From an uncultured Clostridia bacterium (GTDB lineage Bacteria > Bacillota > Clostridia > Peptostreptococcales > Anaerovoracaceae): a stretch of DNA of 47,572 bases. Shown in pieces: positions 22,538 through 46,899 of the stretch (position 1 is the first letter of the stretch; each line of letters begins with the position of its first letter). Below the pieces are notes generated by a model that worked only from the letters and a program-made list of their open reading frames with translations, searched no databases and was not told the DNA's origin. Made by a program: the position numbers and the translations under genes. The DNA lies in NCBI GenBank assembly GCA_945644815.1, contig CALZFA010000001.1, positions 1 through 47,572 on the forward strand, read 5' to 3'.

Positions 22538-22553
22538 TTTATTGCCACCTCCT

Positions 22554-24419: not shown

Positions 24420-24423
24420 ATGC

Positions 24424-24909
24424 CTATGCCTCCATCGCCTCATACTTATCGATTATATCGTCAATGTCAGCTTCCGTCAGTCTGCCGTACACTTCATCGT
24501 TTACGGTGATAACAGGCGCAAGACCGCAGGCTCCTATGCACCGACAAGCATCTAAGGAAAATTTTCCATCTTCTGTACATTCACCGACCTCGATTGCCAG
24601 CCTTTCCTTCAGCTTATTGAGAATATCCGCTGAACCTTTGACATAGCAGGCAGTTCCCATACAGACATTTATTTTAAATTTTCCCTTCTTTGTCAAAGAA
24701 AACTGGGAATAAAAGGTGGCCACTCCGTAAACCTTAGCCACCGGCTCTCCAAGACCTTCGGAAATTTTTTTCATAACATCCTCCGGAAGATAGCCGTATA
24801 TGGCCTGAGCCTCGTGAAGCACCGGGATAAGAGCTCCCGGCATATCCTTGTGCTCTTCAATAACCTTTGCAAGCATTTCATCCATTAAAGCCTGGTTCTC
24901 ACAACACAT
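24424..24909 (-). CDS. hydC: NuoE-like 2Fe-2S subunit HydC
   Basis: Cys pattern CMGTAC...CRCIGAC. AAGGAG RBS. Confidence 0.9.
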   Translation of the reverse strand: MCCENQALMDEMLAKVIEEHKDMPGALIPVLHEAQAIYGYLPEDVMKKISEGLGEPVAKVYGVATFYSQFSLTKKGKFKINVCMGTACYVKGSADILNKLKERLAIEVGECTEDGKFSLDACRCIGACGLAPVITVNDEVYGRLTEADIDDIIDKYEAMEA

Positions 24910-28398: not shown

Positions 28399-28687
28399 CG
28401 TCCTTTCTCAAGGATGTGCTGCTGCCTTCGCAGTCACCGGCGCTGCCGGAATCACAGCAGTTGTCAGTTTCATAATAGGCCTCATCCCTCTGCAGAATCT
28501 TAGCCATAACAACCTTGGCCAGCAGAATCAGTGCCCAGCCACCGGCAAAACCGATTATCAAATCGAATCCCGGCACCGTGTTCCACAACATATGGTAATG
28601 AGGATGGGCAAAAAGAACTTCAATTATAACCGTTAACGCCATTACGCCTGCAAGGAGAAGATAAACTGATTTTTTCTTTTTAAACAA
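28382..28687 (-). CDS. small 2-3 TM membrane protein with a Cys-rich acidic tail (probable TTG start at 28687)
   Basis: GGAGGTGG lies 8 nt upstream of the TTG. KKKK precedes the first TM segment. The gene sits between two antiporter-like subunit genes. Confidence 0.5.
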   Translation of the reverse strand: MFKKKKSVYLLLAGVMALTVIIEVLFAHPHYHMLWNTVPGFDLIIGFAGGWALILLAKVVMAKILQRDEAYYETDNCCDSGSAGDCEGSSTSLRKDGEGNV

Positions 28688-30230
28688 TTGCTCCACCTCC
28701 TCCGGATATGGACTCAGCAGCAATAACCGCCAAGTCATAAAGATGCGGACCCGCGTCAGGCATTATGCCCAGCACCAGCGATACTACCGCTGTTATAACT
28801 ATAGGAATAAGCATGGCCGGTGCAGCATCATTGTATCCGGCATGTCCGCCATACTTCTCTCCCACAGTCTGAGCATGTCCGGAAATTTCCGCAGATCTGT
28901 CGCTCTTTCCAAAGAAAACACGTACCACCGGAATCAGATAGCTCAGAGCCAGAAGTGCCGCCGCTACCAGCACGGCGACAAAAAGAGGTTTGCCCGCAAT
29001 CAATGCGCCTCTTATTATATTAAACTTGCTTACAAATCCGGCAAGCAACGGAAGACCTGCAATCCCAAGAGATGCCAGACCGAAGCAGGCGCAGGTTACA
29101 GGCATCTTTTTTGCCAGACCGCCCATAGTGCTTATCTCAGACAGACCCGTTGTCACATATATAGCCCCCGCGCACATAAACAGAGTAATCTTCAGAAATG
29201 CATGAGCCACAATGTGAAACATTGCACCGGTAATACTGTATGGCGCCAGCACGCTGATTCCCAGCACAATGTAAGAAAGCTGGCCAATAGTGGAGAAGGC
29301 CAAACGCGCCTTGAGATTATCCTTCCTCATTGCGATAAAAGATGATAACAGAATAGTAGCCACAGCAAACCATGCAAGGATTTTGTCGGCACCGCACCAT
29401 CCTGCGGCCTCAGGGCCGAATACATAACATACCACTCTCAGCACACAGAAGGCTCCCGCCTTTACTACCGCCACCGCATGAAGCAGTGCACTCACCGGAG
29501 TAGGGGCTACCATAGCAGAAGGCAGCCAGCCGTGAAGAGGCATAATACCTGCCTTGACAGCTCCTCCGCCAATCATCAGTAAAAACAACATGAGCATAAG
29601 CCCCGTACTGACACTTCCGGGATCTATGAATCCCCCCGCCTTAAATTCGCAGGTTCCGTAGATCACATAAACAGCTGCAACAGCCGCAAAAAACAGCTGT
29701 CCGCTGATAAGTGTATAGGCGAGATATTTTCTTCCGGAAGCCCTCGCCTTATCATCGCGGTAATGCACTACCAAAGGGTATGTGGCCACCGTAAGCATTT
29801 CGTAGAAAATAAAGAATGTCAGCAAATTTGCAGCAAAGGAAATTCCTATTGTCGATGAAAGGCACACTGCAAAGGCCGCAAAGTATCCTGTCTGATTTTT
29901 TTCATGATGACCCCTCATATATCCGATTGAATACACGGAGGTGACAATCCACAGCCCCGACGCAACGCAGGCAAATATCATACCTGCAGCATCTGTCCGG
30001 AAAGCCAGCTCTACGCCGTCAACAATTTCCCACAGGCAGAAGTAATACTCATTACCGGCAAGAACCGCCGGCACCATAGAAAACACCAAAACCGCCTTGA
30101 TAACGGCTGCTGACAGGGTTATACCCTCCCTCACGTTAGGCCTCACATTGTTTCCGAAGAAGAGTATGAGAAGTGCTGCAAGAAGAGAAATAACAACAGC
30201 AAGAAAAGGTTTTATACTTAATATCGTCAT
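28680..30230 (-). CDS. MrpD/NuoM-N family antiporter-like subunit (second copy)
   Basis: 516 aa and polytopic, with WLPSAMVAPTPVSALLHA and HAFLKITLFMCAG motifs. Confidence 0.85.
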   Translation of the reverse strand: MTILSIKPFLAVVISLLAALLILFFGNNVRPNVREGITLSAAVIKAVLVFSMVPAVLAGNEYYFCLWEIVDGVELAFRTDAAGMIFACVASGLWIVTSVYSIGYMRGHHEKNQTGYFAAFAVCLSSTIGISFAANLLTFFIFYEMLTVATYPLVVHYRDDKARASGRKYLAYTLISGQLFFAAVAAVYVIYGTCEFKAGGFIDPGSVSTGLMLMLFLLMIGGGAVKAGIMPLHGWLPSAMVAPTPVSALLHAVAVVKAGAFCVLRVVCYVFGPEAAGWCGADKILAWFAVATILLSSFIAMRKDNLKARLAFSTIGQLSYIVLGISVLAPYSITGAMFHIVAHAFLKITLFMCAGAIYVTTGLSEISTMGGLAKKMPVTCACFGLASLGIAGLPLLAGFVSKFNIIRGALIAGKPLFVAVLVAAALLALSYLIPVVRVFFGKSDRSAEISGHAQTVGEKYGGHAGYNDAAPAMLIPIVITAVVSLVLGIMPDAGPHLYDLAVIAAESISGGGGAIV

Positions 30231-30233
30231 TCT

Positions 30234-31760
30234 TTAAAGCACCTCCATTATCGTAGTTCTCAGTATACCGTTTACTATAAATGAATTGCCCAGTCCCAAG
30301 GCGATTATCATAAGAGCGGCAGACACGATAGGAATCAGCATTTGCAAAGGCACTTCGGTCTTTCCTGTCAATTTTCCATATCCGTAATATTCTTCCGGTG
30401 CAGCAGGCTCCGAAACAGTCTTTTCTCCCATGAACATTTTCTCAAATATTCTGAAAAAATAGATGGCACTGAGCAGACTGCTTATTATTAGCACGGCCAC
30501 ATATAAATACTGTCCGTTCTGAATAGCTCCCAAGGCAAGATACCATTTGCCGAAGAATCCGGCAAAGGGCGGCAGCCCTATCATGGAAAGAGCAAGCACA
30601 ACCAGCGCTCCGCATGTCACCGGCATTTTGCGATACACCTGTCCCAGCCGGTCAGTGTAGTGAATTCCGTATCGATACTTAAAGGCAGCTGAGGTATAGA
30701 AGAGCCCGGTCTTCATAAATGCATGGCTCAAAATGTGAAATACGGCACCGGCTATTCCGTAGAAATTACCTATGGCAAAGCCCAGGGCTATATATCCCAC
30801 CTGTCCTATGCTGGAATATGCAAGAATTTTGTTGTACTTATCATAACGCAGTGCTTTGAGGGAACCGTAAAGTATTCCCAGTACCGCCATAATCCCTATT
30901 ATATTGAAAATTGTTTTCATCATCGGCAGACTGCTGTCGAAGATGCAGAAGAAAAACCTGAACATTGCATAGGCAGGTATTTTTATCATCACTCCTGCTA
31001 TCATCGGGTCGGCGGCAGGATGAGCATATGAGTGTGCCGCCGGCTGCCAGCCATGGAGGGGGAACAGAGCCATCTTAATTCCGAAGCCCACAATAAGGCA
31101 GGCCATTGCAATGGCAATAAGAGGTAAATTATCTACCCTCTGAAGGCGAACCGCCAGGTCTGCCATATTGAGAGTTCCTGTTGCCGAATACAAAAATCCT
31201 ATTCCCAGCAGATACATGGATGCTCCGATTGTTCCCGTCAACAGGTATCTGAAAGCCGCAATCGGTCCCTTTTCTTCACCGATAGCAATCAGTCCGTATC
31301 CCGAAAGAGCTACGATTTCCATAAAAACATACAGGTTGAAAGCGTCACCTGTTGAAGCAATACCTAAAAGGCCTATTACAAGGAAACAAAGTATTGAATA
31401 ATATCCCGCACTTTTGAATGGCGCATTTTTGTCCGCTTCTTCAAAGGGGCTGCTGAACAGAGCTGTCATAGCTCCTATAAAGCTTACCAGCACTATTATG
31501 ATTCCGTTTACTCCGTCAATTACAAATTCAACACCATAAGGGGGCTCCCAGCCTCCCAGATAGTAGTGCACCGCTTCCCCGGACTGCACTATACCTGCAA
31601 GCTGAATCAGACTCAGAACAAAGACAACGAAAAGAAACACAATTACGGTTCTTTTCCCAAGAGACGGACTCAGACGACTGAGCAGAGGACACAAGACAGC
31701 TGCACATAATGGAATGACTACTATCAGAACAGGAATATGGGATATGAAAAATAAATTCAT
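30234..31760 (-). CDS. MrpD/NuoM-N family antiporter-like subunit (first copy)
   Basis: Polytopic, with LHGWQPAAHSYAHPAADP and HAFMKTGLF motifs. ATGA overlap with mrpC. Confidence 0.85.
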   Translation of the reverse strand: MNLFFISHIPVLIVVIPLCAAVLCPLLSRLSPSLGKRTVIVFLFVVFVLSLIQLAGIVQSGEAVHYYLGGWEPPYGVEFVIDGVNGIIIVLVSFIGAMTALFSSPFEEADKNAPFKSAGYYSILCFLVIGLLGIASTGDAFNLYVFMEIVALSGYGLIAIGEEKGPIAAFRYLLTGTIGASMYLLGIGFLYSATGTLNMADLAVRLQRVDNLPLIAIAMACLIVGFGIKMALFPLHGWQPAAHSYAHPAADPMIAGVMIKIPAYAMFRFFFCIFDSSLPMMKTIFNIIGIMAVLGILYGSLKALRYDKYNKILAYSSIGQVGYIALGFAIGNFYGIAGAVFHILSHAFMKTGLFYTSAAFKYRYGIHYTDRLGQVYRKMPVTCGALVVLALSMIGLPPFAGFFGKWYLALGAIQNGQYLYVAVLIISSLLSAIYFFRIFEKMFMGEKTVSEPAAPEEYYGYGKLTGKTEVPLQMLIPIVSAALMIIALGLGNSFIVNGILRTTIMEVL

Positions 31761-32137
31761 TTTTTCCACCTCTTTCCTGTTATGTCTTCTTCTTCGATGC
31801 TGCCGTAGATTTCCTTAATCTTCATAAGCAATGCCAGTGCCACCCCGGTGGTTCCGAGGCTGACCACAATAGCAGTCAACATAAGAGCGTGAGGCAGAGG
31901 ATTGATATATGCATCCGCACCGAGAAGATTTTCTACAACCACCGGGAGAGTTCCATGCTCCTTCTGTCCAAGAGCCAGGAAAAAAAATATAATGGAAACC
32001 TGCATGATATTCATGCACATGATTTTTTTCATATAGTTACCGCTGGAAACCATGCCAAAAATACCCAATCCCATAAGGATGAAGGTCATCATGTATATTC
32101 CCTTTTCTGCTAAAAATGTTTCTATTATGTCAATCAT
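31757..32137 (-). CDS. mrpC: MrpC/MnhC (NuoK-like) subunit
   Basis: 3 TM segments. INPLPHALMLTAIVVSLG motif. Confidence 0.8.
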   Translation of the reverse strand: MIDIIETFLAEKGIYMMTFILMGLGIFGMVSSGNYMKKIMCMNIMQVSIIFFFLALGQKEHGTLPVVVENLLGADAYINPLPHALMLTAIVVSLGTTGVALALLMKIKEIYGSIEEEDITGKRWKK

Positions 32138-32915
32138 CAAATTCTGTCCTTTCCAGCACCACTTCAAGAATGTTTATAATGGTCGCCATTACGCAGACCA
32201 CAACGCCTATTTCAATTAACAGTATTCCCGTACCGTGAAGCTGTCTTATCTGTTCTGCCGTATCCGCTCCAAAAGGCAGTTTGCCATACTCGAGGAAATT
32301 ACCACTGCCTGCCATAGGTAAAAGACCCGTGAGAATGTAAATAAAAACCCCCACACCGGCAATCACGGCTGCCGTCTCCTCTTTCAGATTCCCAAGACTG
32401 CTGTTGAAACTTGGGATAATCCTGTCTATCATGTATGCGATTGCAAGGAGCGCCCCTGCCTGGAATCCTCCTCCCAGGCTTAATTCTCCGTGAACCAATA
32501 CATAAAAAGCATATATTACAATAACAGGAACAATTATGCGGAAGGCTATATCCAGCACGGTGCTGCCGAAACTTATCTGCAGTCTTTCCTTCCTGCTCCT
32601 TTCAGGTTTAGTGACCTTGGCTGTGGTTGAAAGCACCATAAGAGCAGTGACTCCTGCCAGAAACATTACACATGTCTCAAAGAGAGTATCAAACCCTCTG
32701 TAATCGGCCAGCACTGCTGTTACCATGTTGTGTGCCCCCGTGTCCTCCAAAGAGTTTTCTATATAGTAGTCTGAAAGATACGTGTGCACAGGTGCTTTTG
32801 CGTCATCCACAGCAGGCAGCAAATCGGGGAACAAAAAGAAAACACCTATAACGACTGCAATTACGAAAAATACACCAACAATCTTTTTTCTATCCTTGTT
32901 TCTGTCCATATTCAT
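32130..32915 (-). CDS. mrpB: MnhB-domain subunit (MrpB-like)
   Basis: NMVTAVLADYRGFDTLFE motif. Confidence 0.8.
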   Translation of the reverse strand: MNMDRNKDRKKIVGVFFVIAVVIGVFFLFPDLLPAVDDAKAPVHTYLSDYYIENSLEDTGAHNMVTAVLADYRGFDTLFETCVMFLAGVTALMVLSTTAKVTKPERSRKERLQISFGSTVLDIAFRIIVPVIVIYAFYVLVHGELSLGGGFQAGALLAIAYMIDRIIPSFNSSLGNLKEETAAVIAGVGVFIYILTGLLPMAGSGNFLEYGKLPFGADTAEQIRQLHGTGILLIEIGVVVCVMATIINILEVVLERTEFDD

Positions 32916-33160
32916 TTACACCGCCTGCTGATAGATTTAATGGCAATAATAAAGTAAACTGTTGATATTACACCGATTACAGCCTCAGTAAAGGCTACGT
33001 CCGCCGCTCCTGCCAAAATATAAAGAATCATAGCTGAGAAGCTGAAGGCACAATATATGATGGTTAATGCCAGCAGATCCTTTCCGAAAATAATTACTAT
33101 AGTTATTGCGATAAGCAGGAGAAGAAATGCTCCCTCAAGTAAAATCGGAGACATCAGCAT
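32912..33160 (-). CDS. MbhD/DUF4040-like small subunit (MrpA C-terminal / MrpB N-terminal-like)
   Basis: 82 aa, 3 TM segments, GAADVAFTEAVIGV motif. Confidence 0.65.
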   Translation of the reverse strand: MLMSPILLEGAFLLLLIAITIVIIFGKDLLALTIIYCAFSFSAMILYILAGAADVAFTEAVIGVISTVYFIIAIKSISRRCK

Positions 33161-33474
33161 CCACTCCCTTCTTTTTCATCTGCGTTTTTTGCGTTCTCTT
33201 TGTAAGCAACCCTATCAACTATATGTGTTCCGATAGGTCCTGCCAACATTGAAACAAACATAACCAGAAGAATTTTTATTCCTGTTGTATCAAAGCCCTG
33301 GTAAATAAAAAGGCCTATACAACACAGGCTTATCCCCAGGGACTGTCCCAGACCTATAGCGTGAAGCCGGCTGTAAAAATCCGGAAACCTCAGTATGCCG
33401 ATTACCGATGAAGTCATAAAAAACAACCCGGCAATGATAAATATTACCGTAAATACACATCTAATTTCCGTCAT
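33154..33474 (-). CDS. mrpG: MrpG/MnhG subunit
   Basis: GILRFPDFYSRLHAIGLGQSLG motif. GGAGG RBS. Confidence 0.8.
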   Translation of the reverse strand: MTEIRCVFTVIFIIAGLFFMTSSVIGILRFPDFYSRLHAIGLGQSLGISLCCIGLFIYQGFDTTGIKILLVMFVSMLAGPIGTHIVDRVAYKENAKNADEKEGSGC

Positions 33475-33742
33475 CTTTTTCGCCTCCTTCTCCGCTCATA
33501 AACTTGGCGACTATGACCGAGCTGACAAAGCCCAGAATCGCAAAGGAAAGAGCAATGTCCACATACATTTCTTTCCGGCCGTCCACAAAACCGATCATCA
33601 TAAGAAAAAGTGTCACATTTGCACTCATGGCCAGAATGGCCGCAAAACAATTATAAAAGCCCCGTTTTTTGAAAAGCATAAAAAGCAGGGGAAAAGAAAG
33701 CAAAACAGATGCAACAAGGCATATAATTAAAATAATCTGCAT
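33461..33742 (-). CDS. mrpF: MrpF/MnhF subunit
   Basis: 3 TM segments. DIALSFAILGFVSSVIVAKF motif. AGGAGAG before ATG 33742. Confidence 0.75.
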   Translation of the reverse strand: MQIILIICLVASVLLSFPLLFMLFKKRGFYNCFAAILAMSANVTLFLMMIGFVDGRKEMYVDIALSFAILGFVSSVIVAKFMSGEGGEKDDGN

Positions 33743-33767
33743 ATTTATCTCTCCTTTCAAATACATG

Positions 33768-34361
33768 CTATCCTGCAGCTGCGGAAATATCCGTGGCTTC
33801 AGACTGTGTCAACGGAACAAAACTGCAGGTTTCGCCGTAAAGGGCAGCTATTTTACGCTGCATAACGCCTGTCATGAGCCCTCCGGCTGTAGCCTCCGTA
33901 AGGGCGTGTACCTGGAAAACCCCCTCGTCGTCAACATCAAGGGTAATAGTACCCGGCGTAAGAGTAATGGATGTAGAAAGCAACGCTGCTGCCGTTGGGT
34001 TTTCATAGTCCATTTTGAAATAAATCACGTGGGGCTTTACATCGGACTTTTTGAAAGCAGCCTTCGTCACTGCAAGTCCCGAAAGGAAAATTTCCTTTAA
34101 AAGCCACAAAAAAAATGCAGTGAACTTAAATATATTTACATTCAGCAGAAAAAAAACCTTTCCGCTTTTTTCATTTTTCACCGTGAGAAAAGGCGCACAG
34201 ACATAGGCCGTCAACAGAGAAAACCCTGCGCCCATAACAAGAAACTCTGGGTCTTCATTGCCTGAAAGAAGCAGCCAAATGATAAAAACAAATGTACTCA
34301 ACTCAACAAAACAGGTCAATGGAGACCCATTGACCTTAAAATTCCCTAAATTAAATTTCAT
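33768..34361 (-). CDS. mrpE: MrpE/MnhE subunit
   Basis: SITLTPGTITLDV motif. First gene of the cluster. Confidence 0.8.
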   Translation of the reverse strand: MKFNLGNFKVNGSPLTCFVELSTFVFIIWLLLSGNEDPEFLVMGAGFSLLTAYVCAPFLTVKNEKSGKVFFLLNVNIFKFTAFFLWLLKEIFLSGLAVTKAAFKKSDVKPHVIYFKMDYENPTAAALLSTSITLTPGTITLDVDDEGVFQVHALTEATAGGLMTGVMQRKIAALYGETCSFVPLTQSEATDISAAAG

Positions 34362-35262: not shown

Positions 35263-36270
35263 CTATCCGATGAAAAGCGGTACCAGCAAAGGTACTGCAG
35301 CACTCATCATCATTCCCATACAAAAAGAATATACCACAGTCTCCGGTCTGCAAGATCTTTCAACAATAGGCATGCATATATCCATGGCTGCTACTCCGGG
35401 AATGGCCGTCGCTTCAAGATAGCCGATTTTCTGTGCTGCCAGCGGAATTATTATTATTCCCAAGGTCTCACGAATTACATTGTGCATAAATGACACGGCT
35501 CCTGCCACCGCATGACCGGCCTCTGCAATTGCCCCCGGAGCAAAGGTGTACCATCCGAATCCGGCACTGACAGCCACCGCCTCTCTCACTGTCAAAGACG
35601 AAATCATACCGTAAAGAGCTCCAAATACAAGGCTTCCTATAATGGCCGCAATGGGAACCAAGATCACCCTGATTCCTGCTGTTTTCAAACTTCTGATTAC
35701 GTTTCCGTCAAGACCGAGATTAAATCCTACAAATCCCAGCAGTATGCATATTCCGACTACCAGCCAGTTCCCCGACATTTCCTGAAATAATGCAGTATCG
35801 ACAAAAACCCTGGGTATCAGCAGGTATCCTGTAATCATTCCTGCAGCAACACAGATGAGAATAAAAACGGTTGTTTTAGCCGCGCCGTCTTTCTGCTCAG
35901 TCTTTTCCAAAGCTGATTCCTCTGCTTCGGCTGCTTCTTGAATCAGCTCCTCAAGTTCGCGGTTTTCTTCAATCCCGGGCGCAACTCCCTGTCTGTTCAG
36001 TCCGGTAATCTTCCTCAGAACCGTTACCGCCGCCATGCTCCCCAAAACGGTAAAAAACGTGATCAGAACTGCTTGAATCCCGATTGTTCCAAGGCTTGAT
36101 GTGACTTCTTTATTGGCACCCATTCTCAGCCCCATTATGAATACAAGTATGTAAATCACAGCATTCAGCGCTCCGCCGATAAATCCAAAAGAGTCTTTAC
36201 GGCTGTCAAGCCTGGAGGCGGCTATGTAACATAATATCATTATTCCCCAATACAAAAACAAAAGCTTCAT
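35263..36270 (-). CDS. LysO/YbjE-family (DUF340) membrane protein, paralog 2
   Basis: Two hydrophobic halves joined by an acidic linker (EELIQEAAEAEESALEKTEQ). C-terminal half contains GFGWYTFAPG...IPLAAQKIGYLE. Confidence 0.65.
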   Translation of the reverse strand: MKLLFLYWGIMILCYIAASRLDSRKDSFGFIGGALNAVIYILVFIMGLRMGANKEVTSSLGTIGIQAVLITFFTVLGSMAAVTVLRKITGLNRQGVAPGIEENRELEELIQEAAEAEESALEKTEQKDGAAKTTVFILICVAAGMITGYLLIPRVFVDTALFQEMSGNWLVVGICILLGFVGFNLGLDGNVIRSLKTAGIRVILVPIAAIIGSLVFGALYGMISSLTVREAVAVSAGFGWYTFAPGAIAEAGHAVAGAVSFMHNVIRETLGIIIIPLAAQKIGYLEATAIPGVAAMDICMPIVERSCRPETVVYSFCMGMMMSAAVPLLVPLFIG

Positions 36271-36304
36271 AACGTCTTTCCTTTCCGGCATTATTGCGGT
36301 ATCT

Positions 36305-37330
36305 CTATCCTATTATAACAGGTACCAGCACCGGCACCAGAATGCTCAAAACAACCCCCGACACAAATGAATATACAGCAATGTCACTTCTCGTGGATTT
36401 TTCAACTATAGGCAAGCATACGTCCATGGCTGCCGCTCCCGGCATTCCCGTAGTTTCTATATACCCGATTTTCTGGGCAACCATAGGAATAAGCAGTATA
36501 GAGAATAGCTCTCTCATTACGTTATGAAGAAATGCCACTGCGCTGGCAGTCAGATATCCGGCTTCCATAATGATACCCGGTGCAAGGGTATACCATCCGA
36601 AACCGGCGCCTATGGCCGCAGCCTCTTTTAAGCTCAGGCCCATAAGCATTCCGCTTACAGAAGCACCTACAAGAGTAGCGATAACTACCGCGATTGGGAA
36701 CACTATGATTCTGAATCCCACTTTTATGAAATTTTCGATTACGGTACCGTCAAGTCCCAGATCTATTCCTACAAACAGCAACAGCAGGCACAAGCCTATT
36801 TTAATCCCCAGACCTGCCATATTATCAAAGCTTTCCATATTTCCCTGAAAAGCACTGCGTATTACAAAATATCCGATGAGCATACCCGCGGAAGCGGCTC
36901 CCAATATGAGAAGAGTCATCACATTGATGCCGCCTTTTTTGTTTTCTTCTTCAGCTTCTAAAGTCTCCGCAGCTTCTTCTATTTCTTCAAAGGCTTCTTT
37001 TTCCTGACTGTTCATTCCGGCTTTTTTATCCGTGTTATTCAGTCGGCCGTATCTGTCAATCCCCATAACTTTACGTGCCGCGGTGATTGCGGCAATAGAG
37101 AGCACCATTGAGGCAATTGTAATAACAAAAGCTGTAATTCCTATGGTCTTCAGGTTCTCTGTTATTTCTCTGTTGGCACCCATCCTCATTCCCATCAGAA
37201 GCACCAGACACGTAATGGCAACAGTCTGCGCCTTCCCCGTCCAGGAAAGCTTATCTTTATATTCATTTATCCTGCTTCCGATAAAATACCCTACAGCGGT
37301 AATTCCGAGATATAAAATTAAATCAGACAT
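36305..37330 (-). CDS. LysO/YbjE-family (DUF340) membrane protein, paralog 1
   Basis: Same architecture as paralog 2 and collinear with it (GFGWYTLAPG...IPMVAQKIGYIE). Confidence 0.65.
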   Translation of the reverse strand: MSDLILYLGITAVGYFIGSRINEYKDKLSWTGKAQTVAITCLVLLMGMRMGANREITENLKTIGITAFVITIASMVLSIAAITAARKVMGIDRYGRLNNTDKKAGMNSQEKEAFEEIEEAAETLEAEEENKKGGINVMTLLILGAASAGMLIGYFVIRSAFQGNMESFDNMAGLGIKIGLCLLLLFVGIDLGLDGTVIENFIKVGFRIIVFPIAVVIATLVGASVSGMLMGLSLKEAAAIGAGFGWYTLAPGIIMEAGYLTASAVAFLHNVMRELFSILLIPMVAQKIGYIETTGMPGAAAMDVCLPIVEKSTRSDIAVYSFVSGVVLSILVPVLVPVIIG

Positions 37331-40122: not shown

Positions 40123-41448
40123 CTACAGAAGAGGTGCCACAAGGATGGCGCAAAGCGCAATAGGAATATTATAGCACAAGGCTGTCGGTACACATGTATC
40201 CCAGATGTGGTCGTGCTGTCCGTCAGCGTTGAGACCGCACGTAGGTCCCAGAGTTGTATCCGATGCCGGAGAGCCTGCATCGCCGAGAGCTGCGGCAGCT
40301 GCAATGAGCATTACAGTTCCACCTGCGCTGAATCCCATCTGAGCACAGAGCGGCACGTACAGCACTGCCAGTACAGGTATGGTTCCGAAAGATGTACCGA
40401 TGCCGATAGTGATAATAAGACCTATGAGCATCATTACGGCTGCAGCGATAAACCTGCTTCCTCCCATAATGTAAAGAGAAGCTTCAACTAGTTCTCCTAC
40501 GGCTCCTGTCTCATTCATAACGTTGGCATAACCTGCAGCCACCAGCATGATAAAAGCGATAACACCCATGATAGAAAAACCATTTTTTACTACAGTCTCA
40601 AGTGCACTAATCTTTACTGCGCCTCCGGCGACCATGATTATGATTCCGGTGAGAGCACCCAGCGGCAGGGAATCTGTGATAAGATTGATAATTAAAGTTC
40701 CTGCTGCAGCAACAAGAGTAACCCAGTGAGCCGCTGTCATCTTAAGCTGAACAGGCTTGCCGTTTTCGTCAAGTTCTGCAGGAGCCGCACCTGCCACCTC
40801 AAGATTTTGATACTCTCTCGGTTTTCTGAAGGCAAAGACGGCTGCCACAAGTCCAACGATCATTGCAGCACCAAGGGGCCATGTGTAGTGCCACACATCT
40901 CCTACCTCGATGGCCATTCCGTTAGCCTGTAGATTGTCCGAAATAAGACCATGAAAAATAAAGCCGAAACCAAAAGGCAGAGCTATGTACGGTGCCTTAA
41001 GTCCGAATGCGAGAGCACATGATATGTTTCTTCTGTCCAGCTTCATTTCATTCATAACATGAAGCAATGACGGTATCAATATAGGAATAAAGGCGATGTG
41101 AACCGGAATAAGGTTCTGAGAACAGCAGGCTATAAATGTCAGAGAAATAATAAGAGCCAGCTTGTTCCTTCCTACCACGTGAGAAATTTTCTGCGAAAGA
41201 ATTTCCGTTATTCCTGTATAAGCCATACCGCTTGCCAGTATTCCCAGCAGGATGTAGCTGAGAGCAGTTTGTGCGTTGCCTCCCATTCCCGAAATCAAGA
41301 CTCCCATGGTATCCACTATGGATATTCCCGCCAGAAGGCCTGCTGCCATGGCAGAAATCAGGAGGGAAAGCAATACATTAATCTTAAGCATGCAGAGTAC
41401 TATGAGAAGAACTACAGCAACTACTATAGGATTCAAAATAATTTCCAT
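40123..41448 (-). CDS. Na+/H+ antiporter-family (YuiF-like) transporter, probable amino-acid/organic-acid carrier
   Basis: 441 aa and polytopic. Resembles the YuiF/Na_H_antiporter family. AAGGAG RBS. Confidence 0.6.
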   Translation of the reverse strand: MEIILNPIVVAVVLLIVLCMLKINVLLSLLISAMAAGLLAGISIVDTMGVLISGMGGNAQTALSYILLGILASGMAYTGITEILSQKISHVVGRNKLALIISLTFIACCSQNLIPVHIAFIPILIPSLLHVMNEMKLDRRNISCALAFGLKAPYIALPFGFGFIFHGLISDNLQANGMAIEVGDVWHYTWPLGAAMIVGLVAAVFAFRKPREYQNLEVAGAAPAELDENGKPVQLKMTAAHWVTLVAAAGTLIINLITDSLPLGALTGIIIMVAGGAVKISALETVVKNGFSIMGVIAFIMLVAAGYANVMNETGAVGELVEASLYIMGGSRFIAAAVMMLIGLIITIGIGTSFGTIPVLAVLYVPLCAQMGFSAGGTVMLIAAAAALGDAGSPASDTTLGPTCGLNADGQHDHIWDTCVPTALCYNIPIALCAILVAPLL

Positions 41449-41492: not shown

Positions 41493-41508
41493 TGCAACAA
41501 TCGCGCCA
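41493..41508 (-). promoter_or_regulatory. sigma-54 promoter P1 (TGGCGC-GATTG-TTGCA)
   Basis: GG-N10-GC on the minus strand. The -12 element lies about 45 nt upstream of ATG 41448. Confidence 0.75.
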
Positions 41509-41516
41509 ACGCCTTT

Positions 41517-41567
41517 TGAGCCATTTTTAGCTCATCTCCCCGAGCTCTATGAACCATTTATGGCTCA
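41517..41567. promoter_or_regulatory. pair of 18-bp palindromic sites (TGAGCCATTTTTAGCTCA, TGAACCATTTATGGCTCA); putative enhancer (UAS)
   Basis: Read directly. The sites are 33 bp apart and lie 119-169 bp upstream of the -24 element of P2. Confidence 0.65.
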
Positions 41568-41684: not shown

Positions 41685-41700
41685 TGGCACGGCTTATGCA
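41685..41700 (+). promoter_or_regulatory. sigma-54 promoter P2 (TGGCAC-GGCTT-ATGCA)
   Basis: GG-N10-GC, about 70 nt upstream of ATG 41772. Confidence 0.7.
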
Positions 41701-41771: not shown

Positions 41772-42011
41772 ATGACAAACAAGAAACAATTATTAGACTA
41801 TGCTTTTACAGAAGCCGTTTCAACTTTAAACCTTAATTCCCTGACAAAAGAAGTTGCCGAAGAAGCAATCGCTACTGCAATGTTCGGATATGCAGAGCGC
41901 GAAGGCTATGAATTCACAAAGGAAGAGGTACACGCTACAATTGTTGCCGGTATGGAAACGATGGCTAAATCAAAAGCAGACTTCACTTTTCAGACTTGGA
42001 CAATGAAATAA
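41772..42011 (+). CDS. 79-aa acidic, predicted helical protein of unknown function
   Basis: GGAGG lies 8 nt upstream of the ATG. It has its own sigma-54 promoter and its own terminator. I recognise no motif. Confidence 0.6.
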   Translation: MTNKKQLLDYAFTEAVSTLNLNSLTKEVAEEAIATAMFGYAEREGYEFTKEEVHATIVAGMETMAKSKADFTFQTWTMK

Positions 42012-42031
42012 GTAAAGAATGAACGAGACAG

Positions 42032-42061
42032 AAAAAGGATGCTTCATCAGCATCCTTTTTT
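42032..42061. terminator. bidirectional intrinsic terminator (AAAAAGGATGCT-TCATC-AGCATCCTTTTT)
   Basis: 12-bp perfect stem between convergent genes. Confidence 0.85.
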
Positions 42062-42068
42062 CTTTCTG

Positions 42069-44147
42069 TTAAAGGTCGTGTTTTAATTTCTTTCGCGCCA
42101 GAGTGGTCTGCGGTATACCTAAAAATTCCGCAGCTTTTCTGGTCGTTCCTTTCTTTTTGAGAGCGTAGGCTATGATTTTCTTTTCCTGCTCGTCCATAAG
42201 CTGATTAAAATCTATTCTCTCCACTCCGTTCATTTCTTTTCTCATGTCAAGAACAATCTCACCCAGCATATTTCTGTTAATAAGTTCATCTACGGCATAC
42301 CCGTCGATGACATCGTCTTTTTCGGCTATATACAGTCTATGCACGGTGTTTTCCAGTTCGCGCACATTGCCCGGCCAGTGATATTCCTCAAGCTGCCTGT
42401 ATGCGTCTTCAGAGAACTCCTTCTCTACACCGTACTTCTCACTGTAATTTTTAAGGAAAGCCTCTGCAAGGCAGGAGATATCCTCCTTCCTGAAGCGAAG
42501 AGGAGGTACGTTGATCAGACAGATATTCAGTCTGTAATAAAGATCTTCTCTGAAATGTCCCTCTTCCACCAGTTTTTTCAGAGGAATATTGTTAGCACAT
42601 ATTACTCGCACATTGACGTGCTTAGGCTTTGTCCCTCCCACCCTATAATATGTGCTTTCCTGAAGTACTCTCAGAAGTTTGGACTGCATGCTCAGAGAAA
42701 GGCTCCCTATTTCATCAAGAAACAACATCCCATTGTTTGCAAGCTCGAAATATCCTTCCTTTCCTCCTGCCTGGGCACCCGTAAACGAACCTTTCTCATA
42801 TCCGAAAAACTCTGATTCTGCCAAATTTTCCGAAATAGTTGCACAGTTTATCTTGACGCAGGGTTTATCTTTTCGGCTGCTGTTCTGATGAATCAGGTTA
42901 AATACCTTTTCCTTGCCGACGCCGGTTTCTCCCTGTATTATCACATTGCAGTCATATTGAGCAACGTTAAGGACTTCTTCCACCATTTCGGCCGTCACCC
43001 GACTTTTATATATAAAGCCGTCTATCTGCCGTGCTGCCGCCTGGGTTCTTTCTTTAAACGCAGTGCGGACTTTCTGCGGTCTCTTCTTTTTACCTGCATA
43101 AAATGCATCCAGTCGGCGCAGAGCGGGTTCTGTCTGTTCCACAATGGTGAGCGCAAATTCATAGGCATTGCTGCTGTAACCATCAAGTCCATAGTGAGTT
43201 ATATCCTTTCCCAGACAGTCTACCACCAGAAGTCCGTGACAATATCTGTTGTTCATGCTCGTATAGCATACCAGACCGTTATCCTTTGATATGAGCGAAG
43301 CTACGCTTTCGCAGCCCTTTATGTTTTCCAGGTTTATTACAGCATCAAATCCGTTTTCTTCTTCCATGGACATTATTTTTTTTACCGCCTCCATAGGCTT
43401 ACTCAGGTCCACAAAATAAATTCCGTCCACCAGCGGACCAAAGATGATTTTCAAATCTTCTCTGGTTATCCCTGCAAAGTATGCCCCGTCAATAACAAAT
43501 TTCACTGTAACCGGGCTGTCATTACTGTCTTTGACCATCTGAGAATAATATATAGCCTCCGCTATATTGCTGCCGATAATAGCTGCTTTGTTTATTTTGC
43601 GGGGTTTCAGCTCGCAGGATATGCCGTAAATGCTGCCCTCTTCCTCAAGGGCTCTTACGAGATGTATTGTGCTCATTGCGTACGGTTCATCAATCTTAAC
43701 CATCTGAACCGTCTCAAAGCATATGGCGTAACCCGTGCATCGTATTCTGCCGTAGTTTACATCTATCTCGCCGATTTCATCAATAGAAGCCGGCAGACCC
43801 GCCATAGGCGTAAGACATATAACGTCATCTCCAAGCTTCAGTTTTCCCAAGTCAAACCCCGGTGAAGTTTCTTCAATAGTGCCGATAAAAAGGGCACTGC
43901 TCTCTGTATATGGGTTATGGAACTTGCCTCGTTCCTTAACAATCTTAATAATTCTTTCTCTGATTTTCTCATCATCGTTATCGCAGACACTGCATAACTG
44001 AAAGAAGTTTTCCCGTTCGAGCACTATGCCGCTCAGACGGATTCTGATTTCTCCTTTTTTTAGCTCAGGATCATTGTCTAACTTCCATGCTGTCACAGGA
44101 AGGCTTCCTGCAGGTTCAATTACCCGGTTTAACCCGAAATTTTTCAT
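42069..44147 (-). CDS. sigma-54-dependent transcriptional activator (bEBP) with a Kdd-like N-terminal sensor domain
   Basis: GETGVGKE, ESEFFGYEKGSFTGA (GAFTGA loop), LFLDEIG, and a C-terminal Fis-type HTH. GGAGGAG before ATG 44147. The longer ORF reaching 44225 would cover the UAS sites. Confidence 0.85.
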   Translation of the reverse strand: MKNFGLNRVIEPAGSLPVTAWKLDNDPELKKGEIRIRLSGIVLERENFFQLCSVCDNDDEKIRERIIKIVKERGKFHNPYTESSALFIGTIEETSPGFDLGKLKLGDDVICLTPMAGLPASIDEIGEIDVNYGRIRCTGYAICFETVQMVKIDEPYAMSTIHLVRALEEEGSIYGISCELKPRKINKAAIIGSNIAEAIYYSQMVKDSNDSPVTVKFVIDGAYFAGITREDLKIIFGPLVDGIYFVDLSKPMEAVKKIMSMEEENGFDAVINLENIKGCESVASLISKDNGLVCYTSMNNRYCHGLLVVDCLGKDITHYGLDGYSSNAYEFALTIVEQTEPALRRLDAFYAGKKKRPQKVRTAFKERTQAAARQIDGFIYKSRVTAEMVEEVLNVAQYDCNVIIQGETGVGKEKVFNLIHQNSSRKDKPCVKINCATISENLAESEFFGYEKGSFTGAQAGGKEGYFELANNGMLFLDEIGSLSLSMQSKLLRVLQESTYYRVGGTKPKHVNVRVICANNIPLKKLVEEGHFREDLYYRLNICLINVPPLRFRKEDISCLAEAFLKNYSEKYGVEKEFSEDAYRQLEEYHWPGNVRELENTVHRLYIAEKDDVIDGYAVDELINRNMLGEIVLDMRKEMNGVERIDFNQLMDEQEKKIIAYALKKKGTTRKAAEFLGIPQTTLARKKLKHDL

Positions 44148-44173
44148 TTCTCCTCCAAATGTTTCATATGTGA

Positions 44174-44222
44174 TGTGCCGTTTTTGGCTCAAGCTTCGTT
44201 GCATTGTACCATTTTTGGGTCG
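44174..44222. promoter_or_regulatory. second pair of the same 18-bp motif (TGTGCCGTTTTTGGCTCA, TGTACCATTTTTGGGTCG); putative UAS for P3
   Basis: The sites are 31 bp apart and lie 112-160 bp upstream of the -24 element of P3. Confidence 0.6.
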
Positions 44223-44332
44223 CATTTGTCAACTCTCAGGCATAAGAATCAGGACTTTTTCTCATTGAGTTTAAGATAGCAAGAGTTCTGTTCTCAATGT
44301 GCTGCCGGGTTTTTGCTAATTTTTTATCAAAT

Positions 44333-44348
44333 TGGCACACAACTTGCT
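44333..44348 (+). promoter_or_regulatory. sigma-54 promoter P3 (TGGCAC-ACAAC-TTGCT)
   Basis: GG-N10-GC, about 55 nt upstream of ATG 44403. Confidence 0.8.
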
Positions 44349-44402: not shown

Positions 44403-45905
44403 ATGAATTTTTTAAAGGCTTTCGTTAAGTTCGTTCCTGTATTCGTTTTGGCCGGACTGATGATTTTTGGAAAAGGACATCTCTTCGACGGGCAGGACGC
44501 AATGGTCGCTGCTCCCATCGCTTTCCTCGTTGCAGTTGTAGTTGCAATGCTTGTGGAAAAGAAGAAATGGCAGGAATGTCTGGACGCAGCTATGAATTCC
44601 GTTAAGAACATCTTAGTGGCATTATTCATTCTCATGCTGGCTTATGTAATGGCAAACTGCTTCATGAGCTATGGAGTAGGTGCTTCTGTAGTAAATATTG
44701 CTTTAAAGCTGGGCGTTACCGCTAAATCTGTTGCCTGCGTGGGTCTTGTCTGCACTGCTGTACTTTCGGTTGCTACAGGTACCTCATGGGGAACCTTTGC
44801 TGCCTGTGCACCTATTTTCTTATGGCTGTCTCACATTGTAGGCGGAAATATAGGCCTTACAGTATGTGCCATTGCAGGCGGCGCTTGCTTTGGCGACAAC
44901 ATCGGTCTCATCTCCGATACCACCATCGTATCTTCCGGTATTCAGGGGGTTCAGGTTACTGATAGAATCAGGCACCAGGGTGTATGGTCAGTTTCCTGCC
45001 TTGTTTTAGCTGCCATCGCATTCTTTGTTGCTGCAGTGGTAATGGGCTTAAACGGAACAGGCGATGCTTCCGCGGTAATGGACAACATTACTCCTGAAAT
45101 TCAGGCTTTCCTCGAAGAGGAACGTCCGGCTGCCCTCGACCTCCTCAATCAGGTTGCTGACGGCGTAGCTATTTACATGGTAACTCCTCTGGTTCTTGTA
45201 ATTGTTCTGGCTGTTATGGGGGTTAACACCTTTGCCTGCATCGGAAGCGGTATTATTTCTTCCTACATTTTGGGTCTTTTTGCAGGAACCGCAGGTTCTG
45301 TTCAGGATTTCTTAGATAACTATTTATATACAGGCATAGAGGATGCCGGGTCTTGGGTAGTTCCCATGATGATGTGGGTTGCAGCATTCGGCGGCGTAAT
45401 GCAGCTTATGGATGCTTTTGCTCCTCTTGCAAATCTCATTGCAAAGATGTCAAAAAAGGTAAGACATTTGCTTGGATGGAACGCTGTTCTCTCCCTTCTG
45501 GGAAATGCGGCTCTTGCTGATGAAATGGCTCAGATTGTTACAATCGGGCCTGTTATAAAGCAGGTTACAGAAGACAATGTCGTATGCGAAACAGAAGAAG
45601 CTGCTTATAAGCTGAAACTAAGAAACGCTACCTTTGGTGATGCTATGGGCGTATTCGGTTCACAGCTCATTCCTTGGCATGTATACCTTGGTTTCTACAT
45701 CGGTATCACTGCAGGAGTATATCCTTTGGTGGAGTTTACAAACATAGACTTTATCAAATACAATTTCATGGCTATGATTGCCGTTGCTTCGCTTCTCATT
45801 CTGACCTTTACAGGACTGGATAGATTCGTGCCTATGTTTAAAATGCCTACGGAACCTGAGGTTCAGTTAAAGAAGAACCTCAGCAAGGACGAGCAGGCTG
45901 CCTAA
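44403..45905 (+). CDS. NhaC-family transporter
   Basis: 500 aa and polytopic. Resembles the Na+/H+ antiporter NhaC family. AGGAG RBS. Confidence 0.65.
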   Translation: MNFLKAFVKFVPVFVLAGLMIFGKGHLFDGQDAMVAAPIAFLVAVVVAMLVEKKKWQECLDAAMNSVKNILVALFILMLAYVMANCFMSYGVGASVVNIALKLGVTAKSVACVGLVCTAVLSVATGTSWGTFAACAPIFLWLSHIVGGNIGLTVCAIAGGACFGDNIGLISDTTIVSSGIQGVQVTDRIRHQGVWSVSCLVLAAIAFFVAAVVMGLNGTGDASAVMDNITPEIQAFLEEERPAALDLLNQVADGVAIYMVTPLVLVIVLAVMGVNTFACIGSGIISSYILGLFAGTAGSVQDFLDNYLYTGIEDAGSWVVPMMMWVAAFGGVMQLMDAFAPLANLIAKMSKKVRHLLGWNAVLSLLGNAALADEMAQIVTIGPVIKQVTEDNVVCETEEAAYKLKLRNATFGDAMGVFGSQLIPWHVYLGFYIGITAGVYPLVEFTNIDFIKYNFMAMIAVASLLILTFTGLDRFVPMFKMPTEPEVQLKKNLSKDEQAA

Positions 45906-45968: not shown

Positions 45969-46029
45969 TAGAATGCATATGCAGTGCCTTTCCCGAATAA
46001 ATTGATATATGTCTTGGCGGAGGTTCTGT

Positions 46030-46899
46030 ATGAAAAAAAAAGATTATCTGCTTCTGTTTTTTTTAGTACTCCTTATGGGGGCCGGTATTATATCATATGC
46101 AGACTCCTGCAGCAGAAAGGCTGCGGGCCGGTCCCTTTCTCTTTCGGATTCAAGAGATGAAATTGACATCCCCGTTCTTATGTACCACAGCTTTTGCAAG
46201 GACTCTTCCGGCGAAAACGAATATACAATTTCGGCAGACAGATTTGAAGGTGATCTTAAATGGCTACGCGATAAAGGCTATACAACCATATTCCCCTCCC
46301 AACTTATTTCCTACGTTAACGAAGGAGCCATGCTGCCGAGCAAGCCTGTCATTCTCACTTTTGATGACGGTTTTGCCAACAATATGCTCTATGCATTTCC
46401 ACTTCTCCAAAAATATAACATGAAGGCCGTTATTGCCCTTATAGGGTCTGAATCCGACAAAAGCTCTTCCGACATCTACCGCAACCGCGAACACGGTAAT
46501 CTTAACTGGGGTGAAGTAGCAATCTTATCACAATCCGGTTTAATAGAGTTTGCCAGCCACACCTACGACCTCCACTCCATTTCCCAGGAGCGAAAGGGTG
46601 CCGACAGAAAATCAGGAGAGAGCTCTGACCAATACAGAAATATACTTACGGAAGATCTGCTGAAAAATCAGGACCTAATTGAAAAAGCCACCGGATCTTT
46701 TCCTACTGCCTTTGCCTGGCCTTACGGCTCATATCCCGCTGATCGCATTGCCGATCCCATTTTAAGGGATCTGGGATTTCTTGTAACCTTCACCTCTTAC
46801 CAGCATACAAGCGGCATAACCCGCGGTGAGCCCGACAGCCTCTTCGGCCTGGGAAGATATCTTCGCACGCCTTCCTTTGACATTGAAAAGATAATCTGA
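46030..46899 (+). CDS. secreted/membrane-anchored polysaccharide deacetylase (NodB homology domain)
   Basis: Signal anchor, then PVLMYH, ILTFDDG and FASHTYDLH motifs. GGAGG before ATG 46030. Confidence 0.8.
   Translation: MKKKDYLLLFFLVLLMGAGIISYADSCSRKAAGRSLSLSDSRDEIDIPVLMYHSFCKDSSGENEYTISADRFEGDLKWLRDKGYTTIFPSQLISYVNEGAMLPSKPVILTFDDGFANNMLYAFPLLQKYNMKAVIALIGSESDKSSSDIYRNREHGNLNWGEVAILSQSGLIEFASHTYDLHSISQERKGADRKSGESSDQYRNILTEDLLKNQDLIEKATGSFPTAFAWPYGSYPADRIADPILRDLGFLVTFTSYQHTSGITRGEPDSLFGLGRYLRTPSFDIEKII

Follow-up and report, generated by a model that had tools for sequence, protein, structure and literature searches.

A sigma-54 activator with a Kdd-derived, probably non-catalytic sensor module in an uncultured Clostridia bacterium

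Sigma-54 activators are the main one-component switches of amino-acid fermentation in Clostridia, and many of their sensor domains are unassigned. Among these bacterial enhancer-binding proteins (EBPs or bEBPs), the Clostridial regulators OrdR (ord-ort-ora-orr-nhaC), PrdR, LeuR and CdsR have been reconstructed by Nie et al. 2019 (PMC6615313), and KamR controls kamA, the lysine aminomutase gene, in Bacillus thuringiensis via a PAS sensor (PMC4428206). The EBP domain catalogue of the former work holds PAS, GAF, HPr, PrpR_N, ACT, CBS, Fer4, Fe_hyd_lg_C, FeS, V4R and RR domains only (PMC6615313). The lysine-fermentation enzyme Kdd (L-erythro-3,5-diaminohexanoate dehydrogenase, 3,5-DAHDH) is, according to a review, the only reported beta-amino-acid dehydrogenase (PMC9902596). 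In this study, we describe a sigma-54 activator gene found in a stretch of 47,572 nucleotides from an uncultured Clostridia bacterium of the Anaerovoracaceae (GenBank assembly GCA_945644815.1, contig CALZFA010000001.1, positions 1 to 47,572), hereafter the window. The gene, at 42069..44147 on the minus strand, is defined by its open reading frame (ORF), its ribosome-binding site (RBS) and Pfam and NCBIfam matches, and its 692-aa product carries an N-terminal sensor derived from Kdd. On the strength of sequence comparison and modeling, it is likely that a non-catalytic Kdd paralog here serves as the effector-binding module of a one-component sigma-54 activator that drives uptake genes.

A Kdd-like module joined to a sigma-54 activator core

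Residues 1-345 (43113..44147, minus strand), comprising an N-terminal lobe and a Rossmann-like lobe, are homologous to Kdd over the whole length of the enzyme. The initial annotation had proposed that the N-terminus is collinear with Kdd, and profile, sequence and structure matching all confirm this with highly significant matches that are specific to Kdd. The NCBIfam model NF052381 (Lys_ferment_KDD) matches residues 5-153 with E=1.4e-31 and 109.8 bits, against an equivalog cutoff of 200. A phmmer search of all PDB sequences gives the Kdd entries 7DL0, 7DL1, 7DL3 and 7DL7 as the sole significant ones (E=2e-16 for 7DL3), with regulator residues 4-344 aligned to residues 8-344 of the Kdd chain at ~22% identity to the crystallized enzyme. 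The AlphaFold2 (AF2) model of residues 1-370, built from a 62-sequence alignment that included Kdd enzymes and so biased towards the Kdd fold, has a pLDDT of 92.9 and a pTM of 0.91. When it was submitted to Foldseek, the top matches were seven Kdd chains (E 3e-28 to 4e-26, TM 0.65-0.78), followed after an 18-log gap by generic alcohol dehydrogenases of the medium-chain dehydrogenase/reductase (MDR) type (E~1e-9, TM ~0.45-0.53). A chance resemblance to Kdd is ruled out by the E-values from NCBIfam, phmmer and Foldseek. A Pfam scan of residues 1-380 gave zero matches, which is no argument against the homology, since the version used predates the KDD_N model (PF26370). Precomputed annotations place PF26370 on the relatives P0001 and P0002 (41-42% identity) and on every fused member looked up, and the co-occurrence of KDD_N with Sigma54_activat is visible in them (here and below, P numbers denote cluster representatives and L numbers genomic loci of relatives).

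The minus-strand ORF spans 42069..44225, and the coding start is preferred at ATG 44147 (MKNFGL) because a GGAGGAG RBS lies 5 nt upstream of it and homologs share the same MKNFG start. The peptide motifs listed in the initial annotation are all present in the translation (GETGVGKE, GSFTGA, LFLDEIG, TTRKAAEFLGIPQTTLARK, MKNFGLNRVIEPAGSLPVTAWKLDND, IIKIVKERGKFHNPYTESSALFIGTIEE and AAIIGSNIAEAIYY), and the C-terminal bEBP that it described is borne out by the Pfam matches and the translation, down to the Walker motifs and the sigma-54 contact loop; its helix-turn-helix (HTH) is matched just under the Pfam cutoffs. The AAA+ domain and lid occupy residues 379-620 (42288..43013, minus strand), with Sigma54_activat (PF00158) at residues 379-545 (E=2e-64, 216.6 bits vs a cutoff of 20.2) and AAA_lid_14 (PF25601) at residues 551-620 (E=7e-21); Walker A reads GETGVGKE and Walker B LFLDEIG. 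The GAFTGA contact loop reads GSFTGA, a variant also present in P0001 and P0002, with the key F and T kept. A linker (residues 346-378, 43014..43112, minus strand) joins the Kdd-aligned region to Sigma54_activat, the pLDDT being low past about residue 350, and a Fis-type HTH (residues 646-689, 42081..42212, minus strand), recognized by HTH_50 and HTH_8, closes the protein. Of the window protein, NCBIfam bEBP models (PrdR, NifA, NorR and others) cover no more than the C-terminal ~330 residues, with scores far under their equivalog cutoffs.

The cofactor loop and the relatives of the sensor

In the alignment of the two proteins, Kdd I-I-G199-A-N-G202-K-S-G205 corresponds to I-I-G192-S-N-I195-A-E-A198 of the regulator, the loop G192-A198 being encoded at 43554..43574 (minus strand). 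In place of the second and third loop glycines there are thus Ile and Ala, on either side of a Glu; the degenerate dinucleotide loop of the initial annotation (GSNIAEA vs GANGKSG of Kdd) is therefore what the alignments give, and other enzyme-conserved residues are changed as well. An exhaustive HMMER search over 1.84 billion cluster representatives (E<=1e-3) gave 539 KDD_N relatives, the word-indexed search with the N-terminus having given just 5. Forty-two stand-alone enzyme-length representatives from this search, all of which keep G-x-x-G-K-S-G, together with the 7DL3 sequence formed our enzyme set, and 51 columns conserved in at least 85% of the set were scored as enzyme-conserved, residue roles being drawn from the review PMC9902596 and from conservation. 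The window protein keeps 28 of these 51 columns and has changed 23. Among the losses are G202/K203/G205, which become I/A/A, G94-G95 of the SGG motif (S-A, giving SSA), T300/F302 of SMATSF (N/Y, giving SMNNRY), as well as Q22, S125, L131, P164, D166 and G321. Retained are R12, E38, R83-G-K85, N88-P89, T91, D247, D268, E280, G291 and G323. The position of Kdd E310, which hydrogen-bonds the NADPH amide (PMC9902596), is Asp. With NF052381, the true kdd genes beside related regulators score 218 (L030) and 241 (L031) bits, and the window domain ~110. In a Rossmann fold, an Ile at the tight-turn glycine with an adjacent Glu should block pyrophosphate binding, and on this ground pyrophosphate binding has presumably been lost; most likely, then, the module is non-catalytic and no longer binds the cofactor.

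Among the best 150 of the 539 relatives, about 25 are 680-717 aa long, the others being for the most part enzymes (~340-360 aa) or shorter pieces. The bEBP architecture was found in every fused-length representative scanned or looked up. These fused proteins fall into a degenerate-loop group of ~17 representatives including the window protein, with IIGSNIAEA, IIGNSLVEI, ILGRDILSI and IIARDLISA among the loop patterns, and a smaller group that keeps G-A-x-G-[KR]-x-G (P0059, P0080, P0103) or a near-canonical loop (P0040, P0064, P0101). In a neighbor-joining tree, which is crude and carries no support values, a single clade unites the degenerate-loop proteins, and the intact-loop fused proteins branch between this clade and the enzymes. 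In the databases, KDD_N-bEBPs bear generic names, 'sigma 54-interacting transcriptional regulator' or 'TyrR', and the literature that we searched (Kdd, kdd/kce, kamA regulators, EBP pseudoenzymes, KDD_N) holds no description of the architecture. The domain itself is already tagged as Pfam KDD_N; what appears to be new is a Kdd-derived sensor class on a bEBP, with a degenerate-loop branch that is predicted to be a pseudoenzyme.

Other domain combinations were seen among the relatives. P0111 (1094 aa) and P0134 (1063 aa) have an intact-loop Kdd-like domain fused to an acyl-CoA synthetase (AMP-binding), apparently an enzymatic fusion. P0010 (363 aa), which has a degenerate loop and no AAA+ domain, represents either a gene call that was cut short or a sensor-type KDD_N protein standing alone. 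In P0004 (260 aa), the first ~150 KDD_N residues are joined to an aminotransferase fragment, which may be an assembly or frameshift artefact.

The intact-loop members sit directly upstream of lysine-fermentation genes (kdd, BKACE/kce). The P0103 cluster, with 300 members including Intestinimonas massiliensis WP_256319004, lies upstream of kdd, BKACE (kce) and DctPQM; P0059 is upstream of kdd, an amino-acid permease, BKACE and a 4HBT thioesterase, and P0040 upstream of BKACE, a membrane protein and DctP. In L030, a sigma-54 promoter (TGGCATACAGCTTGCA) precedes kdd. A strict promoter regular expression found no sigma-54 promoter in L031, L032, L035, L038 and L039, and before kdd in L031 there is a weak TGGAACGAAATATGCA. 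As the clear promoter is found only in L030, it is adjacency that supports regulation of kdd by the fused bEBP in the other loci. That fused relatives with intact loops stand beside real kdd-kce operons supports the recruitment of an enzyme paralog as a sensor. The suggestion of the initial annotation, that a dead enzyme paralog was recruited as the sensor of an EBP, accordingly gains support on three counts as far as sequence can tell: the Kdd homology, the loss of the loop and the intact-loop relatives beside kdd-kce. The simplest reading is that a kdd paralog became fused to a bEBP core and sensed a pathway intermediate, and that a descendant lineage lost the loop and was then rewired mainly to transporter genes.

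A scan with one genome per species gave ~24 full-length orthologs at 44-89% identity. Their labels are mostly just Bacillota or Clostridia, the named ones being metagenome-assembled genomes (MAGs) of Anaerovoracaceae, Candidatus Fimisoma and Oscillospiraceae, several of them from goat gut or rumen samples, and Anaerovorax sp. IOR16. The same loop degeneration is found in 20 of the 20 full-length orthologs aligned. The sensor is under constraint, as indicated by 33 positions that are invariant among the orthologs (including R8, E11, P12, W21, N25, E33, R73, K75, N78, P79 and D268) and that concentrate in the N-terminal lobe. Across the orthologs, identity to the window protein is 43-81% in this lobe, 21-87% in the Rossmann-like lobe, the least conserved part, and 67-95% in the AAA+ core. 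A C52/C55 CxxC pair (QLCSVCDND, about 43983-43994) is invariant in 21 aligned orthologs and is found neither in Kdd enzymes nor in more distant fused relatives. The pair may reflect a redox or metal feature peculiar to the clade.

This distribution of conserved residues bears on whether the module might instead be a redox or dinucleotide sensor in the manner of Rex, its Rossmann-like lobe using a non-canonical loop to bind NAD(P)H/NAD(P)+ and so reporting the redox state. Such a role would agree with the Rossmann-like lobe being predicted with high confidence, with the invariance of the first loop glycine (G192), the acidic residue at the E310 position and the retention of G323, and with the canonical loops of basal relatives. 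However, the loop is degenerate throughout the clade, with Ile at the tight-turn glycine and Glu beside it, the lobe that would bind the dinucleotide is the one that has drifted most (21-87% vs 67-95% for the AAA+ domain), and the predicted targets described below are transporters and not redox enzymes. We therefore consider a redox sensor unlikely.

Predicted operators, promoters and target genes

Each of the two intergenic regions that flank the regulator gene contains a pair of candidate upstream activating sequences (UAS). Between the regulator and a divergent transporter gene, UAS1a (TGTGCCGTTTTTGGCTCA, 44174..44191) and UAS1b (TGTACCATTTTTGGGTCG, 44205..44222) are 31 bp apart, and this pair is conserved in orthologous loci; on the other side, UAS2a (TGAGCCATTTTTAGCTCA, 41517..41534), a repeat likewise conserved in orthologous loci, and UAS2b (TGAACCATTTATGGCTCA, 41550..41567) are 33 bp apart. 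A repeat search independently gave one pair of similar 17-18-nt sequences per flanking region. All four sites fit the palindrome TGnnCC-nTTTnT-nGnTCA, a motif that is specific in the window, the sole further match in its 47.5 kb (<=2 mismatches) being at 9064. The orthologous loci refine the operator to an 18-bp consensus, TGAnCC-AWWWWT-GGnTCA; operator pairs and sigma-54 promoters alike are conserved over ~20 species. A position weight matrix was built from the window's four sites alone and then run on independent loci, which avoids circularity; its matches occur at 2.23/kb in regulator-flanking intergenic DNA vs 0.076/kb elsewhere, a ~30-fold difference. An upstream match is present in 20/22 loci, with a pair 29-35 bp apart in 13/22, and in the orthologous loci the tandem palindrome pairs lie ~85-170 bp upstream of sigma-54 promoters. 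A high-scoring copy of the operator palindrome (e.g., AGAACCATTTTCGGGTCA) also occurs ~700 bp into the regulator coding sequence in six loci (L003 6700, L006 6691, L011 6694, L004 806, L002 2023, L005 6697), the window's own internal copy being below threshold. Such a copy might work as an internal site or might merely follow from conservation of the encoded peptide.

The predicted primary target is the divergent NhaC-family transporter gene (44403..45905, plus strand; 500 aa, PF03553; AAAGGAG RBS, alternative ATG 44367), whose product is weakly similar, over its full length, to both NhaC and ArcD, an arginine/ornithine antiporter of the NhaC type. A -24/-12 sigma-54 promoter of perfect consensus (TGGCACACAACTTGCT, 44333..44348, plus strand) lies ~55 bp before its ATG at 44403, with the UAS1 pair ~110-160 bp upstream, and nearly all orthologous loci have a counterpart of this promoter. 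On the other side of the regulator, two further sigma-54 promoter-like sites, each with one mismatch, face in opposite directions. The first (TGGCACGGCTTATGCA, 41685..41700, plus strand), which aligns identically in 7 loci, precedes a conserved 79-aa ORF (41772..42011, plus strand), separated from the convergent regulator gene by a stem-loop terminator with a 13-bp stem (42031..42061). The second (TGGCGCGATTGTTGCA, 41493..41508, minus strand), which aligns with the promoters of relatives, precedes a second, NhaC/YuiF-type transporter gene (40123..41448, minus strand; 441 aa, PF03553 and PF13726); both genes are predicted targets. The orthologous loci repeat the promoters before the divergent transporter, the small ORF and the second transporter, the last being present in ~9 of them with UAS sites and a sigma-54 promoter upstream. 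Another perfect sigma-54 consensus, TGGCACTGGCATTGCT at 31827-31842 (minus strand), is probably due to chance: it lies inside an Mrp antiporter cluster, where the MnhB-like and Proton_antipo_M genes stand on either side of it, and the nearby DNA contains no UAS motif.

The regulator gene has a sigma-70-type promoter-like site of its own (44203..44232, minus strand; TTGACA, an 18-nt spacer and a TG-extended TACAAT, 11/12 matches). Its overlap with UAS1b suggests autorepression. UAS1a falls within the predicted 5' leader of the gene.

The 79-aa ORF is found in ~16 orthologous loci at 39-87% identity, in three tandem copies in L023 (8172-8828), and it is preceded by sigma-54 promoters in other loci too. 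It has 66 homologs, all named 'hypothetical' and apparently limited to close relatives. The ORF has no Pfam or NCBIfam match, and its AF2 model, a three-helix bundle with a pLDDT of 81, has no significant Foldseek match; the small ORFs beside the distant family members L035, L036 and L037 show no homology to it. Its product may be a feedback modulator. This raises the question of whether the Kdd-like module could dock a protein rather than a small molecule, be it the 79-aa protein as a feedback anti-activator or the transporter, as in the PspA/PspF and NifL/NifA pairs. A small ORF with its own sigma-54 promoter beside the regulator, encoding a protein without recognizable enzymatic or DNA-binding fold, would suit such a partner, and the oligomers in which Kdd crystallizes (12 chains over two entries) show that interfaces for proteins exist on this fold. 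However, several loci that keep both regulator and transporter lack the small ORF (e.g., L007, L015, L022), as do the surroundings of distant family members, and the invariant residues of the sensor cluster in motifs of the N-terminal lobe that the enzymes also have (RGKxHNP, RVIEP), which fit a retained small-molecule pocket better than partner docking. A protein partner as the signal is thus improbable.

For the preferred reading, that of a non-catalytic Kdd paralog as a small-molecule sensor, a sequence of events can be proposed. The Fis-type HTH would bind the tandem 18-bp palindrome pairs, 31-33 bp apart, in both flanking intergenic regions, as their conservation suggests, and effector binding to the Kdd-like module would, by analogy with other bEBPs, free the AAA+ core. 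The AAA+ ring, through its GSFTGA loop, would then remodel the sigma-54 holoenzyme at the -24/-12 promoters of the three targets, promoters that are seen in the window and conserved, and this activation would induce uptake; the regulator would probably repress its own gene via UAS1b. Our best guess for the effector, judging by where the domain comes from and what the targets are, is an amino-acid-like compound: a basic, diamino or beta-amino acid (lysine, beta-lysine, 3,5-diaminohexanoate) or the cargo of the transporters.

Several points weigh against this proposal, besides the bias of the AF2 model and the crudeness of the tree mentioned above, the first being that all its functional steps are inferred. 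No kamA, kamDE, kdd or kce is present in the 47.5-kb window, and for this lack of lysine-fermentation genes a lysine-pathway ligand is a guess from ancestry; the predicted targets in the window clade are transporters and not enzymes of the lysine pathway. The HTH scores fall just under the Pfam cutoffs (HTH_50, 26.8 bits vs 27, E=4e-6; HTH_8, 20.5 bits vs 22, E=4e-4), those of relatives such as P0022 exceeding the HTH cutoff. The rpoN gene is not among the annotated ORFs of the window, and the presence of sigma-54 in the host genome is assumed because the promoters are conserved. Finally, the -24 element before the second transporter gene reads TGGCGC and not TGGCAC, and the UAS2 pair is just ~9-60 bp away from it; ~60-75 bp between the UAS pair and this promoter (41508-41517) have been lost in the window with respect to six relatives (L001 8678-8747, L003-L006, L011). 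Given the short spacing and the -24 mismatch, the second transporter is perhaps poorly activated in the window.

Least probable is a bifunctional enzyme-regulator of the PutA kind, an active dehydrogenase of 3,5-diaminohexanoate or a related beta-amino acid whose turnover is coupled to activation: the full-length Kdd fold has been kept, as have G323, Y324 and, in the N-terminal lobe, many residues that are charged and conserved, E310 is conservatively replaced by Asp and some fused relatives have an intact GxxGxxG, but loop glycines 2 and 3 are Ile and Ala, with the added Glu, in the protein and all its orthologs, 23/51 enzyme-conserved columns including SGG and SMATSF are lost, the score is 110 bits vs the Kdd cutoff of 200, and no pathway partners are nearby.

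Other features of the window and of the related loci were recorded. Two tandem paralogs of the LysO family of lysine exporters (PF03956) are encoded at 35263-37330 (minus strand), 5-9 kb from the regulator, and many orthologous loci have one or two LysO homologs no more than a few kb from the regulator; this proximity may be general synteny only. An Rfam scan of the whole window gave no matches, and hence neither a lysine riboswitch nor any other known RNA close to the transporter and LysO genes. The divergent transporter is followed by a membrane-anchored PgaB/IcaB-like polysaccharide deacetylase gene (46009-46899, plus strand), conserved in several orthologous loci. A HydABC-type [FeFe]-hydrogenase set (large subunit, Nuo51-like flavoprotein and 2Fe-2S thioredoxin-like subunit) and a multi-subunit Mrp cluster, at 20780-24909 and 26563-34361 (both minus strand), fit the genome of an anaerobic fermentative member of the Clostridia.

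Place among known regulators

Within the wider family, the genes next to the regulator vary. The divergent 500-aa NhaC-type transporter adjoins it in the window group and beside P0008 (36% identity in the sensor domain), in synteny with the regulator in ~20 species. P0009 adjoins a DcuC-type transporter, after which stand two Polysacc_deac_1 genes (L035 11723-13457). The neighbor of P0013 looks like a GPH/MFS transporter by sequence, and that of P0019, a gene with a sigma-54 promoter, looks like a class-III aminotransferase. In the Anaerovorax locus L020, EamA, B3/4-domain and PNPOx-like proteins are encoded next to the regulator and a sigma-54 promoter is present. A broader scheme, which we offer tentatively as possible rather than probable, is that the KDD_N-bEBPs form a class of sigma-54 activators with a complete series from enzyme to pseudoenzyme sensor. 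Its basal members would sense 3,5-diaminohexanoate and switch on kdd-kce-transporter operons in lysine-fermenting butyrate producers (Intestinimonas), and its derived clade would have lost cofactor binding, changed ligand and been rewired to uptake systems (NhaC, DcuC, GPH, EamA) for amino-acid-like substrates in Anaerovoracaceae and related Clostridia.

The family adds a dehydrogenase-derived type to the sensors of sigma-54 activators. It also offers a natural series, from the stand-alone enzyme, through a fused intact-loop paralog beside the enzyme gene, to a fused dead-loop pseudoenzyme with predicted control of transporters. For regulation of the kdd-kce step in lysine-to-butyrate fermentation by gut commensals such as Intestinimonas, the basal members are the obvious candidates; no regulator of this step is described in the literature that we searched, and the paper on lysine fermentation in Intestinimonas does not mention a regulator. 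Biosensors for beta-amino or diamino acids could draw on the well-defined 18-bp operator, the compact promoters and the single-protein sensor as parts.

Kdd itself (7DL0/7DL1/7DL3/7DL7) shares with the sensor module the two-lobe MDR-like fold, the motifs RVIEP and RGKxHNPxT, and D268, E280, G291 and G323-Y324; it is a free-standing enzyme of ~345 aa, whereas in the window protein the module precedes, in one polypeptide, a sigma-54 AAA+ core and an HTH. The intact-loop KDD_N-bEBPs (WP_256319004, P0103, P0059, P0040) have the same KDD_N, Sigma54_activat and HTH_50 domains as the window protein, with ~32-34% full-length identity. They differ from it in keeping G-A-x-G-[KR]-x-G and most enzyme-conserved residues, while the window protein lacks the loop, and in preceding kdd (218-241 bits), BKACE/kce and a tripartite ATP-independent periplasmic (TRAP) transporter or amino-acid permease, while the window protein is flanked by NhaC-type transporters.

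Like the window protein, OrdR, PrdR, LeuR, CdsR and KamR are one-component sigma-54 activators encoded beside their targets and follow the same logic of UAS and -24/-12 promoters; their targets serve amino-acid catabolism or uptake and include nhaC-type transporters and the lysine aminomutase gene. The sensors of Clostridial amino-acid bEBPs are PAS, GAF, ACT, PrpR_N and the like, with no Kdd-like domain in the catalogue of PMC6615313, and the UAS of the window, TGAnCC-N6-GGnTCA, differs from the common TGT-N10-12-ACA type (PMC6615313). PrdR is the best NCBIfam match for the C-terminal 330 residues of the window protein (residues 355-686, 330 bits vs a cutoff of 795).

Sensors derived from enzymes include the aminotransferase-like MocR/GabR, the kinase-like ROK/NagC, the shikimate-kinase-like BzdR and the Rossmann NADH sensors of the Rex type. 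To our knowledge, none of these puts a Kdd/MDR-type dehydrogenase on a sigma-54 AAA+ activator, and their fold and output domain differ from those described here. Among the EBPs, the Fe_hyd_lg_C proteins are likewise a case of an enzyme fold recruited as a sensor (PMC6615313). What the Fe_hyd_lg_C EBPs, MocR/GabR, ROK/NagC, BzdR and Rex have in common with the proposed Kdd-derived sensor is the role in ligand recognition, often for the enzyme's own pathway.

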